43,413 nt of DNA from a virus. The stretch lies in the IMG/VR virus record IMGVR_UViG_3300009078_000001; one strand, written 5' to 3'. The notes under the pieces are model-generated. The model did not search any database, was not told the DNA's origin, and saw only the letters and a list, made by a program, of their open reading frames with translations. This document shows, in pieces, positions 2,332-41,489 of this stretch (within the stretch, counting starts at the first letter, position 1; the number at the start of each line of letters is the position of its first letter). The translations under genes and the position numbers were made by a program.

Positions 2332-3461
2332 CAGGCCTCCCTCGCATGTCTTGATTCATAGACGAACTGTCCCGTTGCATCGGCATAGGAGCGCCCCAGG
2401 GCGACTTTTTCTATCTGCCTTACACAGTGGCGGGCATTGTTGTACTCGGTGTGGAGGGGAATATATATAGTTGATCCGGAAGTGGTAAATTCTAAAGTGT
2501 CGCCGTAATAATAGGTGCTTTCGTAGATAGCGAACGCCCTGAAATAATATAATCTGCCCATCGCAAGGCCTGAAATGTTAAAACTTCTTACATAATCCGT
2601 GACAGACCCGGAGGTGGCGACAGATACAGTAGATTTCCAGTTCTCGTCAGACCAGTATTCGATGCCAACCGTTAAATCTATTCCTGTATATTGCCCGCTT
2701 AATATGGCGGTTTTATTGCCTACTGAAGTGCAGGGAAGCGTTGTTACTGAAATAAGCGACGGGTAATAGGAACTATAATCCCATGTAAAGATACCAAAGG
2801 TGTCTAATATAAATGGTATATTCTCTGTGGACGCAACCTGGCAATCTATATGTCCCGAAGGACAATTCTGCCAAGACGTAACCCAGGTATAATTGTTATC
2901 AACAAATGCCAGTAAATAATAATGCCTGTGGCGGTCAGTGGCATTGGCGACATTATTAATGTAGGCAGACCATGACCCCCCATCTGAGAATTCAGTCCAG
3001 CCTATTAATTTTTTAGTTAATTGCCCTTCGTCAATACATGATCGCCCTGTCGAGCGACAGTTCGTATGGCCTAGCGCACAGGTAGCAGCATTTGACCTTG
3101 CGCCAAAGCTGGTCGCTAGATCAGGTCGCTCCATCCATTGCGCATAATAAGTATGTAGATGAGTTCCATTTTCCCAGTTATATGTTTCGGTGTCTAATCC
3201 TAATGCAGCACATTCAACAGTAGAGAGCCACAATGTGCCTACTGTCGTGCTGTTCCAATAAGCCTCCAGTTCGTCATTCCATGTTATAGCGGCCAGCCTT
3301 TGGCCGCTTTTAACCCCGTTGTCTACATTAACCTGGCAAAGTGTATGACCTGAAGGACAGGTTTTAATAGAGTACGAATGGATACTGGCAGCCCCGGCCT
3401 GCTCCTGAAAGGTATATGAATGCGTATGGTTGGAATAACTAGGATGGCTTGTTTCTGGCAT
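2331..3461 (-). CDS. Tail-tip protein A2: three HxHxY...CxxGHxxC repeats, an FN3-like domain, and a conserved C-terminal motif shared with 3461..4171
   Basis: 376-aa ORF. It has HTHSY..CPSGHTLC, HLHTY..CALGHTNC and HRHYY..CPSGHIDC. The segment ...ISGLAMGRLYYFRAFAIYESTYYYGDTLEFTT looks fibronectin-III-like. The C-terminus is EYNNARHCVRQIEKVALGRSYADATGQFVYESRHAREA. Confidence 0.8.
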   Translation of the reverse strand: MPETSHPSYSNHTHSYTFQEQAGAASIHSYSIKTCPSGHTLCQVNVDNGVKSGQRLAAITWNDELEAYWNSTTVGTLWLSTVECAALGLDTETYNWENGTHLHTYYAQWMERPDLATSFGARSNAATCALGHTNCRSTGRSCIDEGQLTKKLIGWTEFSDGGSWSAYINNVANATDRHRHYYLLAFVDNNYTWVTSWQNCPSGHIDCQVASTENIPFILDTFGIFTWDYSSYYPSLISVTTLPCTSVGNKTAILSGQYTGIDLTVGIEYWSDENWKSTVSVATSGSVTDYVRSFNISGLAMGRLYYFRAFAIYESTYYYGDTLEFTTSGSTIYIPLHTEYNNARHCVRQIEKVALGRSYADATGQFVYESRHAREA

Positions 3462-15413: not shown

Positions 15414-16643
15414 TTAAGTCCTCGTGCTGGACAGTACGATAAACGGGCTAAGAGTGGCAGAGCCGCGTTTCGGGGTAATGTAGGTCAGCCAGGAGGGTTG
15501 CCCATCATACCTCAGCACGAACCTGAAGGCGGTTTCATCCGTGGCAAACCGTACATGGATCGAAGAGGCCACATCGGGAGTGCCTCCACTTTTCTGTCCG
15601 ATGATGTACTGGCTGAAATCGACCAAACCGATGTCCCCAGCCGTGCCCAGGGCCTGCATTTTCTCGGTGTAGATTAAAGGTTTGCCCATTAATGTCTCAT
15701 AGGGATTGCCTGAAATCCCGCCGGCAGGCATCCAGACTAAGGCGCCGCCCGTATTGATGGTCAGACTCATCTGGAAGAGCTGCGGGAAGCATTCGATATT
15801 GGCTACCCAGACAGCATTGGCCTGCCCGGCCGGGTACATCCTGGCCCACATCTTGGCAATGTTCTCAGCCACGATGGTTGCCGCACCCTGCCCTGTTTCC
15901 GCAGTTACCGCAATCCTCGCGGGGTTGGCCGAACTGAATGCCCCCAGGGGCTGGTTGACGCCGGTGCCGTTCAAAAAGTCGTCGTCCTCGACGAAGGCAA
16001 TCGCCTGGGAGAACTTGCGCGTCAGGTAGGCCTCTAGTGCTACCGCGGAGTCGCTTAGAAGCTCGTCCGACACATAGCAAAGACCCGTTACCTTGTGAAG
16101 GGTAAGCGCCACACGCGCAAACGCCGGATTGGTTGAAGTCTTGGTTCCGCCCTCGCCGGGCCGGTAGATTGTTATTCCGCCGAAGTAGTTGGTTGAATGA
16201 TCCGCGTCCGCGTCAGCCGGAATTACTAATCTGTTGGATGCCATGGGCTGAATCGAAGCCCTGGGGCGCACAATAGAGGCCTCCAATGACTTCTCCAGTA
16301 TCCTGGCGCTGAATTCCTCCGGGACCAAGTATCCGCCCGCGTTCATGTCGCCCTCAGCCATATAGGTGTCCTTGGTCACGTTGGCCCACGTCTTCAAGGT
16401 GTCGCTGATCTCGTGGTTGGCGTCCGCCCGGAGAACATCACTGAAGAAATGCCCCGCTGATTTAAACCCGCCTCTCTTTGAGGAGAGTATCTTGTCCTCA
16501 GGCGAATTAACCAGATTGATGTCATCGGAGCCTGGGACAAATCTTTTGTCCATTTCCTTGTCCTGTTTAGCCTTGGATGCCTCCACTGCCTTGATAGCAG
16601 TTTCATCCATCATTACGGCTAATTCTTCTTTTGTTATTTCCAT
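15414..16643 (-). CDS. Major capsid protein, HK97 fold family
   Basis: 409 aa, placed after the prohead protease. NAGGYLVPEEFSARILE and the NQPLGAF-type pattern are typical of HK97-family capsid proteins. Confidence 0.85.
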   Translation of the reverse strand: MEITKEELAVMMDETAIKAVEASKAKQDKEMDKRFVPGSDDINLVNSPEDKILSSKRGGFKSAGHFFSDVLRADANHEISDTLKTWANVTKDTYMAEGDMNAGGYLVPEEFSARILEKSLEASIVRPRASIQPMASNRLVIPADADADHSTNYFGGITIYRPGEGGTKTSTNPAFARVALTLHKVTGLCYVSDELLSDSAVALEAYLTRKFSQAIAFVEDDDFLNGTGVNQPLGAFSSANPARIAVTAETGQGAATIVAENIAKMWARMYPAGQANAVWVANIECFPQLFQMSLTINTGGALVWMPAGGISGNPYETLMGKPLIYTEKMQALGTAGDIGLVDFSQYIIGQKSGGTPDVASSIHVRFATDETAFRFVLRYDGQPSWLTYITPKRGSATLSPFIVLSSTRT

Positions 16644-16667
16644 TTAATACCTCCGTAAAATTTCCCC

Positions 16668-16693
16668 ACAAAAAAAGCCCGCATCTACGGGCT
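16668..16693 (-). terminator. Intrinsic terminator (minus strand) between the protease and capsid genes
   Basis: Minus strand reads AGCCCG-TAGATG-CGGGCT followed by TTTTTTTG. Confidence 0.7.
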
Positions 16694-16718
16694 CTAAAAC
16701 TCCGGGTAATATTAAGTT

Positions 16719-17936
16719 TTATTGAATTGATTTTGCTACAGCTTGATTGATGATAAGTTTACGCTCATCATCCGATATCTTAACGGGGATGTCGCACCCC
16801 GGAACGCGCCTGATTTTCTCCGCCAGTTTCTTTAGTGATTTTTTATTTTCTTCACTAAAATCACCCTTTTCGATAATCTCCGAAATATAATCTAATTCAT
16901 CTGTGATTTCGCACTGGCTGATTTCTTTCTTTTGGTGAACTTCTTCTATGGGCTTCTCGTCCATTGTTGGCAAACTCTTAGATGTTTCTAAAATAATGCC
17001 CTCAATCGGTGCCTCTAAATCAAGCATAGAATATACAAGGCAAACAGACTTCCCGTGTTCCTTGATCCACTCCTTGGCCTTCTCCATGGTCCAGCCCTTC
17101 TCCTTGGAGAATAAATAGGTCATGACCTTTTTGCAGGTCCCACAGTAGATAGCTTTAATCCCCTTCTCGTTGGATATTAAAATAGTCCTGATCCTGTGCC
17201 CCTCGTGGTCGCCGCTGTCTACGGGTATCCTGAGATAATCGTCGGTCTCTTCGGGTTTGGTTATCCCCTCCTCCTCACCCTGCCCTGGGCTTTCCGCCCT
17301 CCTCATCTGCCCGCCACACTTGGGACACTTTAAATCTTTGCAATGCTCATCGGATTCTATTTTATGTCCACATTTAATACACTCGCAGGTATATGATTTT
17401 TCTTCGGTCAGGTCAACAATCTCGGCATCTTCAAATATGCCCTTTAGTGATTTAACGCTCACGCCGATTTTATCAGCGGCGTTCCTTAATGCGTCCGGGT
17501 TAGAAGGCACGGGCACCGCCGAGAGCTCCAATAGTTCCTGTCTGGTGTAGGTCCGCCTGGGCGTCTTTACGCCGTCGCCCTCAATCACGCCGTCGGGGTC
17601 GGGTATGAAACCCACCGAGGTCGCCCTTAAAAACCCGCCCTGATACAGTTTATAAATGGTGTCAGCGAACTCGTAGGTATCTTTGTCCGCAAACTCAATA
17701 TCAAAAATCAAATTCCCCTGCCTTTTATGTACGTTTACAGCTTTTCCGATAGGAGGCTGCGAATAGTCATGCGCCCACATAAAGACGGGGTTTTTCTTGT
17801 AATTATCAAGGTCCCAGCCCGAAACCTTGATGACTTCCCCGTCACGGTCTAAGGTCTCAGTCGAGCCGGTAAACCTCAAAACCCTGTCCTCTACCTGCTT
17901 GACTTCAAAGTTAAATAATTTACGAATCGTATCCAT
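16719..17936 (-). CDS. Prohead serine protease (HK97/S78 family) with a zinc-ribbon and a C-terminal extension
   Basis: NPVFMWAHDYSQPPIGKAVNV...ATSVGF...LELSAVPVPSNPDA is protease-like. This is followed by YTCECIKCGHKIESDEHCKDLKCPKCGG and an acidic/helical tail. Confidence 0.8.
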   Translation of the reverse strand: MDTIRKLFNFEVKQVEDRVLRFTGSTETLDRDGEVIKVSGWDLDNYKKNPVFMWAHDYSQPPIGKAVNVHKRQGNLIFDIEFADKDTYEFADTIYKLYQGGFLRATSVGFIPDPDGVIEGDGVKTPRRTYTRQELLELSAVPVPSNPDALRNAADKIGVSVKSLKGIFEDAEIVDLTEEKSYTCECIKCGHKIESDEHCKDLKCPKCGGQMRRAESPGQGEEEGITKPEETDDYLRIPVDSGDHEGHRIRTILISNEKGIKAIYCGTCKKVMTYLFSKEKGWTMEKAKEWIKEHGKSVCLVYSMLDLEAPIEGIILETSKSLPTMDEKPIEEVHQKKEISQCEITDELDYISEIIEKGDFSEENKKSLKKLAEKIRRVPGCDIPVKISDDERKLIINQAVAKSIQ

Positions 17937-22509: not shown

Positions 22510-22960
22510 AGTTTTACCACTTTAGTTAAATTTGCAGGCTTAAAAGTGCACCGTTACCCCACTGGGGTTAAATTTGCCGCCGGGCGGGTGAGAATTTTTA
22601 CCACTGGCCTAAATTTACCCTTCTTATGTCGGGCGGGTTCGGTTAGCTTACGAGTTAGGCTTTAGTCCGTCAGTAACCTTACTACCAGTGGTTTAGAAGG
22701 CCTTTTTGTTGTGTATGGTATTAGAGGCGGTATCCCCCCACACTCTCGCCGATCCTGAGCAAATTATGACCGCCCTCCCCTATCAAGAGGGTACAGAACT
22801 ATACTTCCAAGTACCGCTTTCGATCGTAGCGGCAAGCTATCATAGCTAACATGCGGCAGGTAGCTTCCGCATTATCACGAGTGGACTAGATAATAATAGG
22901 CTAAAAGGTTGCCGCAAAGCACAGCATATGAATAAAATCTGTTTTTTTAAATCAAACCCG
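22510..22960. promoter_or_regulatory. Candidate cos/pac region (451 nt non-coding)
   Basis: There is no credible ORF on either strand. The region lies between an HNH endonuclease gene and the terminase genes, and it contains phased repeats and several G+C-rich helices. Confidence 0.5.
22511..22620. repeat. Three ~26-bp direct repeats with exact 42-bp phasing
   Basis: GTTTTACCACTTTAGTTAAATTTGCA (22511), GTTACCCCACTGGGGTTAAATTTGCC (22553) and TTTTTACCACTGGCCTAAATTTACCC (22595). The CCACT cores sit at 22517, 22559 and 22601. Confidence 0.8.
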
Positions 22961-34748: not shown

Positions 34749-35431
34749 CCTCTTACCGCCTGCAGTGCCTGATAACTCGCCTTGTAGTTTTTGATTTCAG
34801 TGGCCTTTTGAACGTTGAGTTCGTTTAGTATTTGAGTCGCCGATATGCCGAATTGCTTCTGGCAGTACATGACAAATTCTGTGGGGTTGGCGAAGTCCGG
34901 TAATGTGGTGGCTATCTGTGTAGCCGCATCTTTCTCGGCCTTTGGTTTGCCACCGGTTGCCGCCGGCTTCAGGTAATCCGCCATCTTATCTCTTTGGTAT
35001 GCCCTGTAGGCCGCCAAGAGGTCAGCCGGGGGCGGCTCCTTGCCGTCTATGATCTCGTCCTTGATTTGGTTAGCTACCGTCTGCTGCTCGATTGACTTGC
35101 GGGTTTCAGGCGAGTCCTGACGGGGCTGCCAGCCTTTACCTCCACCCTCGCTCCTGACCGGCTTGCCGTCTACCCACATCTGCGAGACGTTCCTTTCCTT
35201 GTAAACCTCGCCATCGTATTCCCTCTCAGATTCCTCAAATTCAACCTCGGCCTTCAGGTCTTTTGCCAGCACTTCGCTGATACTTTTTGACATGGTTTTA
35301 AATTTGAGTTCCTTGTCGCCCACCATGGCCTTGAAGCCATAAATTGTGTATGGCTTCCCGGTGTTCTTGGATGTGCCTGACTTGGTTTCCAGGATTTCAG
35401 TTACCTGTATCTGTTCTTTCTTTTTATCCAT
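34745..35431 (-). CDS. Putative ssDNA-binding / recombination partner protein
   Basis: 228-aa ORF coupled to the nuclease gene. The function is inferred only from position. Confidence 0.35.
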   Translation of the reverse strand: MDKKKEQIQVTEILETKSGTSKNTGKPYTIYGFKAMVGDKELKFKTMSKSISEVLAKDLKAEVEFEESEREYDGEVYKERNVSQMWVDGKPVRSEGGGKGWQPRQDSPETRKSIEQQTVANQIKDEIIDGKEPPPADLLAAYRAYQRDKMADYLKPAATGGKPKAEKDAATQIATTLPDFANPTEFVMYCQKQFGISATQILNELNVQKATEIKNYKASYQALQAVRG

Positions 35432-35440
35432 TTCTCCCTC

Positions 35441-35620
35441 TTATAAATATTTATCTGCTTCTTTGTTGATTTCTATTAAAGTGTCCTGCTGGCCAAATGT
35501 CGCCACTCGTTTACCGTACTGGTAAAGGTGGACGAAGTCGTCAGCTTCTTCTCGAAGTTCCAACCCCTTGGCCCGGTGCCAGGGTTGTAAAATTCCGTTG
35601 TACTGTGATACTATTACCAT
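35441..35620 (-). CDS. Hypothetical protein (59 aa, not in track)
   Basis: My translation is MVIVSQYNGILQPWHRAKGLELREEADDFVHLYQYGKRVATFGQQDTLIEINKEADKYL*. Confidence 0.5.
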   Translation of the reverse strand: MVIVSQYNGILQPWHRAKGLELREEADDFVHLYQYGKRVATFGQQDTLIEINKEADKYL

Positions 35621-35634
35621 AACCCTTTTTATTG

Positions 35635-35667
35635 GGGGAGCGGTTTACCGCCGCTCCCCTTTTCTTT
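35635..35667 (+). terminator. Strong hairpin plus T-run oriented for the plus strand
   Basis: GGGGAGCGG-TTTACCG-CCGCTCCCC followed by TTTTCTTT on the plus strand. On the minus strand the hairpin is followed by CAATAAAAAG. Confidence 0.5.
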
Positions 35668-35675
35668 ACCCCCTT

Positions 35676-35846
35676 TTATTTTTGTATAACTACCCCGCAA
35701 AAGGGGCAGGTATCCCCCGTTTCAATATTCTCCGGCAGCCTACCGGCGCACCAGCCGCATTTTATAGCGCCTGAGTCTGTGCGCCGTATCCCAATTTTTT
35801 TAAGGACATCGGGCTGTTTACGTTCCGTTACGCGATGCGTTACCAT
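35676..35846 (-). CDS. Zinc-ribbon protein (56 aa, not in track)
   Basis: My translation is MVTHRVTERKQPDVLKKIGIRRTDSGAIKCGWCAGRLPENIETGDTCPFCGVVIQK*. Confidence 0.55.
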   Translation of the reverse strand: MVTHRVTERKQPDVLKKIGIRRTDSGAIKCGWCAGRLPENIETGDTCPFCGVVIQK

Positions 35847-36156: not shown

Positions 36157-37047
36157 CTAAATCTCCAACCTATTCACCGCATCGCTTAAATGCTTCGGTA
36201 CCAGGTCAATATAAATTGCCGTTGTGGAAATATCCTCATGGCCTAACAACTCCTGAACATCCTTTAAGCTAGTTCCCTTTTCAATTAACTGGGTAGCGAA
36301 AAAGTGCCTAAAAGAGTGTGTATGGAAGCCATCTACATGGGCGAGGCGAGCATAGCGCCTGACTATGTTTGAGAGGCGCTTGGGCTGTAGGTCGATGATG
36401 CGCTCGGAGGAGGTGAGCGCTGCAGTAAAATCATGGAGGCATTCGTAAAGTGAAGCTGCTATTGGTATTGCCCTGTCTTTATCTCCCTTGCCGTGCACCA
36501 GAATCATGCGGGCGGAAAAGTTTATATCCCGCATCCGTAAGTTTAAAAGCTCGCCTCGCCTCATGCCGGTATAGGCAAGGAGCAGGACAATCAAATGGTC
36601 TCTTGTTCTCTTGTGGTACTTGTCTTTAACCGTATCCACGGCCTCCAGGATAGCCCGCACCTGCTCTATAGGGTGATAAATGGGCAGGTGCTTCCTTTTC
36701 TTGAACTTGGCCTGGAAAACTATCTCGTGGTCGGCCAGGAAGGGTCTTAATGCGTGGTAGTAGCATCTTTGAGTTGACGAGGTAAATCCCTTACCTTTCA
36801 GGACACCTAAAAACTCATGGGCAGTCTCTGATGAAACTGTCTTTAATCCAAGCCACTGCACGTACGTGTCAATACAGCGTATGTATTTGCGTACCGTAGA
36901 AAGTGAAAGATCAGTGGCCTTAAGGGCTTCTTTGTAAGAAAGCAGGGCTAGCTGCGCCTCTGCCTGCCTTATTGCATCCGCCACTACATAACTCTTGTTT
37001 GCTATTATAACCTCTGCCACTGACATTCCCTCTTTTTTATGTTTCAT
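36157..37047 (-). CDS. int: Tyrosine recombinase / phage integrase (XerC/D-like)
   Basis: Catalytic set: TGMRRGEL (R), GKGDKDR (K), HSFRHFF (HxxR), LGHEDISTT (H) and AIYIDL (Y). Confidence 0.9.
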   Translation of the reverse strand: MKHKKEGMSVAEVIIANKSYVVADAIRQAEAQLALLSYKEALKATDLSLSTVRKYIRCIDTYVQWLGLKTVSSETAHEFLGVLKGKGFTSSTQRCYYHALRPFLADHEIVFQAKFKKRKHLPIYHPIEQVRAILEAVDTVKDKYHKRTRDHLIVLLLAYTGMRRGELLNLRMRDINFSARMILVHGKGDKDRAIPIAASLYECLHDFTAALTSSERIIDLQPKRLSNIVRRYARLAHVDGFHTHSFRHFFATQLIEKGTSLKDVQELLGHEDISTTAIYIDLVPKHLSDAVNRLEI

Positions 37048-37228: not shown

Positions 37229-37279
37229 GCTTTAAATATATACCTTTAGTTAAGCAATGTCAAGTAGTTAAGGGGCTTT

Positions 37280-37308
37280 TTGACAAAAAAAATTGCAAGT
37301 ATTATTCT
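37280..37308 (+). promoter_or_regulatory. Sigma70-like promoter for the lipoprotein moron
   Basis: TTGACA (37280-85), a 17-nt spacer, then TATTCT (37303-08). A GGTGGGGGTGGAG SD precedes the ATG at 37326. Confidence 0.5.
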
Positions 37309-37325
37309 GTAGGTGGGGGTGGAGA

Positions 37326-37661
37326 ATGAAAATCATCTTAATTGTGGTGGCCTTGCTACTTATGGTTTCCTGCGCGCCGGCTGAGAATACAGTTCAGCTT
37401 ACCGCTACGGTCAAATATAACAGCAACACGTTGTATCTAACCAACGATGACAATTTCAGCTGGTCAGATGTGAGGCTATATCTAAACGGGTTTGACTACC
37501 AGTTGGGCGTAGACAAAATTGGAGCCGGGGAAACCTTTAACACGCCTATTAAGGAATTTGTGACAGGGAAGGGAGAGCGGTTTAACCCGGTATCAACAAA
37601 GATAATGACTGTGTATATTGTTTCCACAGAGGGCGCGTGTGGCTTTGAATACGGTCAGTGA
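37326..37661 (+). CDS. Secreted lipoprotein (moron; possible superinfection-exclusion function)
   Basis: MKIILIVVALLLMVSCAPAEN is a signal peptide with a lipobox-like MVSC. It is on the plus strand, convergent with the neighbouring gene and overlapping its stop. Confidence 0.7.
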   Translation: MKIILIVVALLLMVSCAPAENTVQLTATVKYNSNTLYLTNDDNFSWSDVRLYLNGFDYQLGVDKIGAGETFNTPIKEFVTGKGERFNPVSTKIMTVYIVSTEGACGFEYGQ

Positions 37662-38173
37662 GCCTTTCTAACGGTCCTTAGATATTTTGCGCCCTCGTAC
37701 ATGTCCTTGAAGGCTAGAACCTTGTCCTCATTTGGAAACAGTATCACAACCGGGTTGGCCACATGGTTGCCGAAAAAGCCGTTCTGCTGGGCGAAGTCAT
37801 CATAAACCGCGTAAGTTCCGGGACGAACCGCTACACATTCTTTCCCGTCGTACTGGTAGGATTCCACGCTTGATACGTGGTGATGCTCAATGGTTACTAT
37901 GCGAGCCCACGGAGCGTACATCCGTTGGTACTGTTTATTAGAGTGCGTCTGGTTAAAGCTGGAATTGAACTTGCCCTGATGGATTGAAAACTCAGAGTAT
38001 GTCTGGTTCCCAACCTGATAATTAATCCTCCCGCCGTGCTTTATATAACAGATTTTTAGTTGCTTGGCCTTTTCACCCAACCAATCCTCACCGGTCAATA
38101 AGGTATCCCAGTGGTTGTGATTGCCCGTTTTTAATACGAGTGTTTTTACAAACATCTTATCTAGGGTAAGCAC
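37655..38173 (-). CDS. Metallophosphoesterase-like protein, C-terminal part (in frame with 38186..38737 across a single TAA)
   Basis: LVLKTGNHNHWD (GNH(D/E)-type motif) and VTIEHHHV. Confidence 0.6.
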   Translation of the reverse strand: MLTLDKMFVKTLVLKTGNHNHWDTLLTGEDWLGEKAKQLKICYIKHGGRINYQVGNQTYSEFSIHQGKFNSSFNQTHSNKQYQRMYAPWARIVTIEHHHVSSVESYQYDGKECVAVRPGTYAVYDDFAQQNGFFGNHVANPVVILFPNEDKVLAFKDMYEGAKYLRTVRKAH

Positions 38174-38185
38174 CAGTAAACCTTT

Positions 38186-38737
38186 TTACACGGCTATTGG
38201 TATCTGATTATGGGAGCTGCCCATTTTGGTGGCCTGGATTATATTCTGTATGGAATCCCCGCCTATGTTTATGTATAAACCGGGCTCCTTCTGAATAAAA
38301 TTCATGTCCTTTTCAAAGGCATCGTAATCCACGCCGAACTGCCCCAGCTGCCAGTCGGAGGACTCCACTATTCCGATTGGTAGTTTGGTATCAAATATAA
38401 CACCGACTTCCTGGGGGATCTTCTGGTGGAAGCCAACTAGGTCATCCATTTCTTTGATAACTCTTAAATGTTCCGCCCACGTAGAATCTGCAGGAAGTTT
38501 ATAATTAAACTGAGGCGGGACCGTATAGCGCGGGTCGTCATGGGCATAGGCTTTATGTCTTATATCCTCTGGTAAATATACACCCCGGGCCGTCATGCCG
38601 TTGGCAAATGAATCGACCGAGGTATAATTATACTTTTTAGCCAGTTTCTGCCGTTGCGAGATATCCGATGATAGATATTCCTCAATGAGTGATTTCCATT
38701 GCGTTGATTTTAATGGTGGTAGTTTAGTTGGTGGCAA
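38186..38737 (-). CDS. Metallophosphoesterase-like protein, N-terminal part
   Basis: VESSDWQLGQFG (degenerate DxH motif) and INIGGDSIQN (GD motif). The stop TAA at 38188-38186 is followed in the same frame by KGLLVLTLDKMFVK... Confidence 0.6.
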   Translation of the reverse strand: MPPTKLPPLKSTQWKSLIEEYLSSDISQRQKLAKKYNYTSVDSFANGMTARGVYLPEDIRHKAYAHDDPRYTVPPQFNYKLPADSTWAEHLRVIKEMDDLVGFHQKIPQEVGVIFDTKLPIGIVESSDWQLGQFGVDYDAFEKDMNFIQKEPGLYINIGGDSIQNIIQATKMGSSHNQIPIAV

Positions 38738-39383: not shown

Positions 39384-39611
39384 TCAAAGGCGTTTCCTTT
39401 TGGTGATGTTTTTAGTGGGAATTGTGATAGTGTCACCGTACCCGGTGCCGTCCAGCATGGCATTGACAGCCAGAATAGTTTCCTCTTTGCCGGCGCGAAC
39501 CAGGAAGCCGGCAGAGGCGCACTTGGCAGCCTGAAGATTCTTTGCGATCTTTTTAGGCATCCAGCCATGATGCACACAGCTATCCGTCCACTCTATATAA
39601 TAAATACGCAT
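39384..39611 (-). CDS. Hypothetical protein
   Basis: 75-aa ORF (MRIYYIEWTDSCVHHGW...). Confidence 0.6.
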   Translation of the reverse strand: MRIYYIEWTDSCVHHGWMPKKIAKNLQAAKCASAGFLVRAGKEETILAVNAMLDGTGYGDTITIPTKNITKRKRL

Positions 39612-40093
39612 AATATTTCTCTTTAATAAGGATGCTGGCTCGGATGTTTAGTTTACGCCTCTTATTATCAGGACGTATCCCGACAAAACCCGATAGTTTT
39701 TGGCGAGGACACCAGCACCTTTGTTTGCCCAGTTTCTAATCGGGTGATACTGGACAGGACGTCGATTAACCACTACGGAGAGCGACTCCGATTAGCAACC
39801 CGTTGCCCTATTGTGAGGCAACCCTATGGGACTCTAACCTGTAAGATAGCCTCACGTAGTTACCCGCCATTAACCACTCTGAGGTTGGCAGGTGTAAGTA
39901 CAGGACGCACCCTAGAAAATCCTGTCTGGCTTGCCCTTCTAAGGCAGGCGCTGCAATACCATTCTAGGAATAGCATCGGGCGCAGATTACTTGGCGGCTT
40001 CTGCGAACAGCATTATCCCGTTCCGGCTGGCCACGGAAACAGGCATGGCTGCCTTTGACCCTTAATTAACACCGCCGCTTGGTGAGGCCAGTT
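39612..40093. other. 482-nt ORF-free, G+C-rich island: candidate structured non-coding RNA or decayed gene
   Basis: All three minus-strand frames contain multiple stops. The only long ORF (plus strand, 39744..40058) is Arg-rich and not protein-like. Many 6-8-bp complementary segments are present. Confidence 0.4.
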
Positions 40094-40345
40094 CTAAGTA
40101 TGAGCGCAAGGCGTAGATTCTGCTATGCTAGTAGATTTTGCTGTGATATAAGTTGTGGGATAATCGCAAGAAGTTCCCCCCGTACTATAATACGGAGTAG
40201 TATATGGCCGATATGTCCAATCCCCATAATATGGCCAATAGTTATGTTGATGCCCGCCCCATTCCCTTTTACACTTCGTGCAGTAAACCACATCACATTT
40301 ACCGCAATACTTTAGATTGTGTTCGCACTCATTATGTTCGTGCAT
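40094..40345 (-). CDS. Cys/His- and Tyr/Trp/Pro-rich small protein
   Basis: 83-aa ORF with a strong RBS (AAGGAGG). MHEHNECEHNLKYCGKCDVVYCTKCKREW.... Confidence 0.65.
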   Translation of the reverse strand: MHEHNECEHNLKYCGKCDVVYCTKCKREWGGHQHNYWPYYGDWTYRPYTTPYYSTGGTSCDYPTTYITAKSTSIAESTPCAHT

Positions 40346-41268: not shown

Positions 41269-41340
41269 ATAAACCTCCTTTTATGTTTTATGAGATAAAT
41301 GTAAGGCAGTAGATATGCGGATGATGACATGATTCATTAT

Positions 41341-41489
41341 AATGAGCGTGTGTTCACTGAAATGAGCATTTTCAACGGATGCTGAAGAAGCCTTATTCAG
41401 TGAAACGTCTCATTAAACGTCTCAATAATGTCTCACCTTGAGACGTTTATCGGACACAATGAGCATTAATTATGTTCTATCGGACACAA
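41341..41489. promoter_or_regulatory. Repeat-dense operator or iteron-like region
   Basis: AAACGTCTCA at 41403 and 41415, and AATGTCTCA at 41427 (12-bp phasing). Inverted TGAGACGTTT at 41439. TATCGGACACAA at 41448 and 41478. AATGAGCATT at 41361 and 41458. TTCACTGAA (41353) pairs with TTCAGTGAA (41396). Confidence 0.6.

Follow-up and report, generated by a model that had tools for sequence, protein, structure and literature searches.

The locus lies in the genome of an uncultured temperate tailed phage, siphovirus-like, which was analysed as one stretch of 43.4 kb, apparently the whole contig (the window). The window encodes structural and replication proteins, including the portal, prohead protease, major capsid protein, terminase, DnaB helicase, a DNA methylase and a Lin1244-like replication organiser. 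The best identity of the portal among 50,697 phage records was 27–35%, indicating that the phage has no close cultured relative. The minus strand carries nearly all genes of the window, including every gene neighbouring the stretch described here, and the genome outside this stretch is tightly packed. Between a gene for a zinc-ribbon-like protein and a gene for a 75-aa protein lies an ORF-free island of 482 nt (Table 1). On the same strand, a DNA-repair exonuclease/metallophosphoesterase gene (phrog_7339) at 37655–38737 is split over two adjacent ORFs, with 38186–38737 covering profile positions 16–88 and 37655–38173 covering positions 103–258; the split may reflect an assembly error, an in-frame stop, or genuine breakage or readthrough of the gene.

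Table 1 Features at and around the island, in coordinates of the window.
Feature	Position	Strand	Description
Tyrosine integrase gene	36157–37047		2.5 kb from the island
75-aa protein gene	39384–39611	−	Downstream of the island; weak match to phrog_25889
ORF-free intergenic island	39612–40093	−	Within the leftward early operon; every minus frame interrupted by stops; G+C 0.51
CAGGACG, three copies in the same sense	39669, 39755, 39901 (span 39669–39907)	+	Three of the seven copies in the window
Structured core	39727–39893	−	Predicted hairpins H1–H4 in series, from the fold of 39722–39898
H4	39727–39755	−	7 + 2 bp; pair probability 0.97
H3	39756–39809	−	Long irregular hairpin, 5 + 3 + 4 + 5 bp; pair probability 0.80–0.92
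H2	39813–39855	−	7 + 6 + 2 bp, 7-nt loop UUAGAGU; pair probability 0.94–0.95; holds GTGAGGC/GCCTCAC
H1	39862–39893	−	8 + 3 bp, UAA bulge on the 3′ side, 7-nt loop UCAGAGU; mean pair probability 0.95
ATTAACCACT, two copies	39765–39774 and 39869–39878	+	Spacing 104 bp; the only two exact copies in 43 kb
Isolated 11-bp hairpin	39954–39978	−	Upstream of the core; 3-nt loop; pair probability 0.95; surrounding 150-nt windows with z near 0
104-aa ORF	39744–40058	+	Judged spurious
Zinc-ribbon-like protein gene	40094–40345	−	Upstream of the island; 83 aa, Cys/His-rich, complete

The island is the longest stretch of the window free of minus-strand ORFs of 45 aa or more, but the margin is not wide, since the next-longest such gaps, at 22510–22960 and 37229–37654, measure 451 nt and 426 nt. 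Each of the three minus frames contains 4–8 stops, mixing TAA and TAG with or without TGA, in line with an earlier, sequence-only reading of this DNA that had seen no coding frame on the transcribed strand. The same reading had described the island as richer in G+C than its surroundings, which holds for the genome as a whole (0.51 versus 0.457, with a peak of 0.52–0.545 at 39700–40100), but the excess is modest and the adjoining 75-aa gene is as G+C-rich as the island (0.49–0.515).

We found no evidence of coding in the island. Codon-usage log-odds, trained on the long genes of the phage, were positive in none of its frames, the six frames read through stops matched no Pfam or PHROG family at E ≤ 1, and the three minus frames gave no tblastn match in the phage collection. 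Genes across the genome terminate with TGA (19), TAA (18) and TAG (8), so the phage uses the standard code and reassignment of a stop opens no frame; a recoded or frameshifted gene was rejected because the minus frames mix stop types and yield neither a family when read through nor a tblastn match. A split gene or an intron was likewise rejected. The 83-aa zinc-ribbon-like protein has 12 homologues, all metagenomic and none with a Pfam domain or name, which share an invariant N-terminus (MHEH...C..H....C.KC.V.YC..C..EW) with the CxxC motifs and also the C-terminal C-x-H end, and this conserved end indicates that the gene is complete rather than a 5′ exon. The exact 83-aa protein was absent from a collection of 15 billion proteins in which three neighbours from the same contig were present, so the public gene call at this locus must differ or be missing.

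On the plus strand, the sole island ORF of at least 100 aa (104 aa) has a GTG start with no Shine–Dalgarno sequence ahead of it, scores −0.08 bits per codon, is missing from the public gene calls and has no Pfam or PHROG match. A word-indexed search of 5.8 billion clusters returned no homologue, and the one HMMER match among 1.84 billion representatives, to seven weak stretches of an 848-aa threonine/alanine-rich repeat protein, is read as an artefact of composition and repeats. Protein homology of this ORF, which the sequence-only reading had named as evidence that would count against an RNA, thus did not appear. These results support the view that the island is non-coding, as no coding explanation survives them.

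Searches for known RNAs were equally negative, in line with the lack of familiar signatures noted by the sequence-only reading. Rfam 15, whose families include ROOL, GOLLD, HEARO, OLE, raiA, RNase P, tmRNA, group I and II introns, riboswitches and phage RNAs, gave nothing at gathering thresholds in the whole window, and at E ≤ 10 a 1.1-kb stretch and two sub-stretches of it gave only chance hairpin matches (DGCR5, mir-486 and mir-890, at 12–18 bits against cut-offs of 50–69). ARAGORN found neither tRNA nor tmRNA in the 43-kb window. A tRNA array, tmRNA, RNase P and introns were rejected on these grounds. No sigma-70 promoter or intrinsic terminator was detected on the minus strand within 39612–40093, so a terminator–promoter spacer was rejected as well.

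A strand-specific signal was found in the centre of the island. On the minus strand, the minimum-energy structure predicted for 39722–39898 coincides with the centroid structure and is unusually stable (−66.1 kcal/mol, z = −4.17, with 0 of 200 shuffles as stable), whereas the plus strand has z = −0.78. With DNA energy parameters the core reached z of only −2.2 and −1.7, similar on the two strands, so its extra stability comes from the G–U pairs of the transcribed strand, which account for 8 of the 52 pairs. Among 150-nt windows of the minus strand, negative z values are confined to 39700–39950, with a minimum of −4.24 at 39750–39899 and flanks at about 0. When all 577 overlapping windows of the genome were ranked by minus-strand stability, 39751–39900 came second, and the core ranked ninth of 577 for asymmetry between minus and plus strand. 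The island spans about five such windows, which puts the probability of second place for any one of them at roughly 2%, a suggestive but not conclusive value; the core probably folds better than chance.

The first-ranked 150-nt window, 41326–41475, is the most negative on both strands (z = −5.8 and −5.7) and coincides with a repeat-dense, operator-like region noted earlier; its strand symmetry fits an inverted-repeat site at the DNA level.

The core is predicted to fold into four hairpins in series. H2 contains a 1×1 internal loop (a U–U mismatch) and a 2×2 internal loop (CA/CA), and the 3′ strand of H3 carries a second GGUUAAU module with a UAA bulge, repeating that of H1 and corresponding to the duplicated 10-mer. 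The hairpins thus share two modules, the 7-nt loop UYAGAGU (in two of them) and GGUUAAU with its UAA bulge (also in two). The near-identical heptaloops are intriguing, but they and the repeats were spotted post hoc, and TYAGAGT occurs in the window in 8 copies versus 9 expected, with no enrichment. Within its loop, H4 contains CCGAUUAG, a complement of the 5′ strand of H3, but pairing the two as a nested helix would cost 10 kcal/mol and has an ensemble probability of zero.

To place the island among relatives, we examined 25 loci with homologues of the zinc-ribbon gene, fetched via alignment A1 from IMG/VR and JGI metagenomes, with GTDB genomes also searched. In these loci the next gene normally follows the zinc-ribbon gene within 4–100 nt, and the island would therefore be an insertion specific to the lineage of this phage, as judged from a set of 25 loci that leaves out the contexts of the closest zinc-ribbon homologues, with identities of 95% (P0001), 91% (P0008) and, across the N-terminal half, 86% (P0005). 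As the 25 loci have the zinc-ribbon gene without the island, the element appears dispensable for that gene module. Searches with the island by blastn, nhmmer and tblastx found nothing similar in any of the 38 fetched loci, and a covariance model built from the single sequence (R1) had no match in the 25 loci and three whole related viral contigs. Blastn found no match to the island in phages, E. coli genomes or plasmids; exact and gapped patterns found nothing of substance in IMG/VR, the 13 matches there being chance matches, and an exact pattern had none in GTDB genomes. Searching IMG/VR through the flanking proteins likewise revealed no relative with the island. Lack of conservation outside this genome, which the sequence-only reading had listed as counting against an RNA, is thus what we found, but it is uninformative: the 75-aa protein, whose sole match among 5.8 billion clusters is itself, and the DUF1599 and 226-aa neighbours are all database singletons too, so the missing homologues reflect the rarity of the phage and say little about the island.

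One fetched locus, L004, has a 169-nt gap after the zinc-ribbon gene (3199–3367, z = −5.1), in which a clear intrinsic terminator, formed by GAGGGACUG...CAGUCCCUC with a U-run behind it, precedes a consensus TTGACA/TATAAT promoter. In two others, the second gene downstream of the zinc-ribbon gene is a free-standing LAGLIDADG-type homing endonuclease-like ORF with a YYAGFFDGEGSI motif (L001:3464–3865 and L002:1489–1890), at the position of the island here; no sequence similarity between this ORF and the island was found.

Given that neither promoter nor terminator was detected on the transcribed strand of the island and that its neighbours run the same way, any RNA structure in it would most simply be part of the early leftward polycistronic mRNA. 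We tentatively favour, at somewhat less than even confidence, the reading that the core is a cis-acting cluster of mRNA hairpins in a lineage-specific non-coding spacer, most likely an RNase III-type processing site or decay barrier. According to this model, the island would be a spacer within the early transcript, of which the central ~170 nt (39727–39893) would fold into four adjacent hairpins. These would act in cis, either as processing sites for an endonuclease of the RNase III type or as barriers to 3′–5′ decay, and could thereby uncouple the stability or translation of the upstream zinc-ribbon gene from those of the downstream genes (the 75-aa gene, DUF1599 and on towards the integrase). 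Transcription of the island, formation of the fold in vivo and a role of this kind are all inferred.

The dimensions of the hairpins bear on this model from both sides. H2, with ~15 bp and two internal loops, and H3, with ~17 bp, loosely fit an intercistronic site of the RNase III type, but both fall below the length of classical substrates, which span about two helical turns. Against the hairpin cluster as such, the prediction comes from a single sequence, for which the collections searched (phages, plasmids, E. coli, IMG/VR, JGI metagenomes and GTDB) gave no homologue, the element is absent from the 25 zinc-ribbon loci, and coding 482-nt tiles of the same genome reach z of −4.7 to −5.1, indicating that low z occurs where there is no known RNA. 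On balance, the ~170-nt strand-specific hairpin cluster is a fair candidate for a cis-acting RNA element. Should it prove functional, it would give a lineage of phages that lacks cultured relatives a regulatory RNA element not characterised before, and would add to the few structured intercistronic RNAs known outside model phages; at present its value is that of a single-sequence candidate, mainly a coordinate flagged for searches of metatranscriptomes or larger metagenomes.

A close rival, unlikely by itself yet to be taken seriously, is that the island is a functionless remnant, either a decayed gene or debris of mosaic recombination that came in with the G+C-rich 75-aa gene, in which case the hairpins would have arisen by chance. 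The absence of the island from 25 of 25 related loci, where the next gene usually begins 4–100 nt on, is compatible with this, as are the extension of the G+C-rich block across the adjoining 75-aa gene and the lack of any promoter, terminator or known RNA motif in our searches. The whole-island z is moreover ordinary for this genome, and about 310 of the 482 nt have no structure signal: the outer parts (200 nt at the 5′ end, 115 nt at the 3′ end) do not rise above background and may have been left as filler by a mosaic junction. Three observations argue the other way, namely that no frame retains a trace of protein similarity, that the core ranks second of 577 in stability and is strand-specific, with an expectation of ~2% if neutral, and that the remainder of the phage genome is tightly packed.

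The repeats in the island raise a different question, whether it works as DNA. All inverted repeats and the duplicated 10-mer reported by the sequence-only reading exist where it placed them, but its view that the complementary segments nest sensibly holds only in part. GTGAGGC/GCCTCAC does form in the ensemble (P = 0.95), but the other helices are unused on the transcribed strand: CCTAGAA/TTCTAGG nests as proposed only in the fold of the plus strand, which is no better than shuffles (z = −0.45), and the nested helix CTAATCGG/CCGATTAG was rejected because forcing it on the transcribed strand costs ~10 kcal/mol. The repeats are spaced at 86, 104 and 232 nt, which is inconsistent with a tandem internal duplication. 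A DNA element assembled from the repeated motifs and inverted repeats, whether bound by proteins or used for single-strand initiation or recombination, would account for the presence in the island, in one orientation, of both copies of ATTAACCACT and three of the seven copies of CAGGACG, for a 104-bp spacing close to ten helical turns, and for z near −2 on both strands when the Watson–Crick inverted repeats are evaluated with DNA parameters. We nevertheless consider such a DNA-level element improbable. The repeat counts are individually weak, with rough chances of ~0.1 for the pair of 10-mers and ~0.07 for the three 7-mers, the replication module (DnaB and the Lin1244-like organiser) lies 7–10 kb away and the integrase 2.5 kb away, and a site in duplex DNA would leave the strand asymmetry seen with RNA parameters unexplained.

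There is also a small chance that the core, either alone or together with its flanks, represents a new phage structured RNA of which no other member has been seen. Its UYAGAGU and GGUUAAU modules might then be recognised by a factor of the phage or the host, such as the adjacent zinc-ribbon protein, and thereby control early expression or counter host defence.

The view put forward by the sequence-only reading was larger still, namely a large structured RNA, taken here to mean that the whole ~480 nt form a single ornate molecule that acts in trans and belongs to a new class. Such an RNA would suit an ORF-free, mildly G+C-rich stretch in a packed phage genome, and GOLLD and ROOL provide a precedent for large phage-associated RNAs (PMC5737381). 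The comparison of folding energy with shuffled sequences that it had proposed came out in its favour, since the minus strand of the island (−167.2 kcal/mol, z = −2.68) beats 100 of 100 shuffles, whereas the plus strand (z = −0.45) does no better than shuffles. Against the genome itself, the result is unremarkable. When the whole genome was tiled in 482-nt minus-strand windows (n = 89, mean z −0.58, s.d. 1.36), the island had z = −2.33 and ranked 9 of 89; its fold as a whole is within the genome background and not above chance. The long-range helices of its minimum-energy structure have pair probabilities of 0.12–0.47, the ensemble predicted from this single sequence is a string of hairpins, and no predicted hairpin of the island carries a GNRA or UNCG tetraloop. 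The signal being limited to 170 nt, with flanking 150-nt windows at z near 0, and the island having neither its own promoter and terminator nor an Rfam match or homologues in our searches, a large ornate RNA seems to us quite improbable: a structured RNA is plausible for the central ~170 nt, while ~480 nt are unsupported. Folding scores of whole gaps thus overstate the case, and against the genome background the claim shrinks from 482 nt to ~170 nt.

The same tiling brought out two other regions. The most negative tile, 35274–35755 (minus-strand z = −5.1 and −4.0 in two computations, plus-strand z = −3.4), contains, especially at ~35640–35720, two G+C-rich hairpins, one formed by GGGGAGCGG...CCGCUCCCC with a plus-strand U-run and one CCCCUUUUGCGGGG-like, which together resemble a bidirectional terminator, placed among small ORFs that come directly after the integrase module. 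The second most negative tile, 16476–16957 (z = −4.67), spans the 75-nt gap between the genes for the prohead protease (16719–17936) and the major capsid protein (15414–16643) and may provide the capsid mRNA with a hairpin or processing site in front of its gene.

Least probable is a real antisense gene (a moron) at 39744–40058, for which its standing as the sole island ORF of such length and a weak plus-strand terminator-like hairpin at 40110–40139 could be cited, against its lack of a Shine–Dalgarno sequence, of positive codon score, of credible homologues and of a public gene call.

Among known systems, ROOL (RF03087) and GOLLD (RF01998) resemble the island as non-coding phage stretches of several hundred nucleotides with G+C above their surroundings. 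These RNAs are large, junction-rich and pseudoknotted and are often found near tRNAs in prophages (PMC5737381), whereas the island has no covariance-model match at E ≤ 10, no reliable junction and no tRNA in the window. The terminator–promoter gap of L004 is alike in its position directly after a homologous zinc-ribbon gene and in its strongly negative z (−5.1); it differs in its G+C-rich stem with a U-run and its TTGACA/TATAAT promoter, neither of which is present on the transcribed strand of the island. In the early region of T7, as in the N-leader and sib of lambda, clusters of irregular hairpins between early cistrons are classic RNase III sites or decay barriers. The predicted core has no sequence similarity to these hairpins, its helices are somewhat under two turns, and its four hairpins are clustered in one 482-nt gap, whereas T7 has a single hairpin per junction. 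The T7 R0.3–R1.3 and lambda N-leader/sib hairpins nevertheless resemble the predicted core: they are irregular, 40–60 nt long and interrupted by internal loops, they separate cistrons of a polycistronic early phage transcript, they lack a promoter and a terminator of their own, and they are confined to the transcribed strand.
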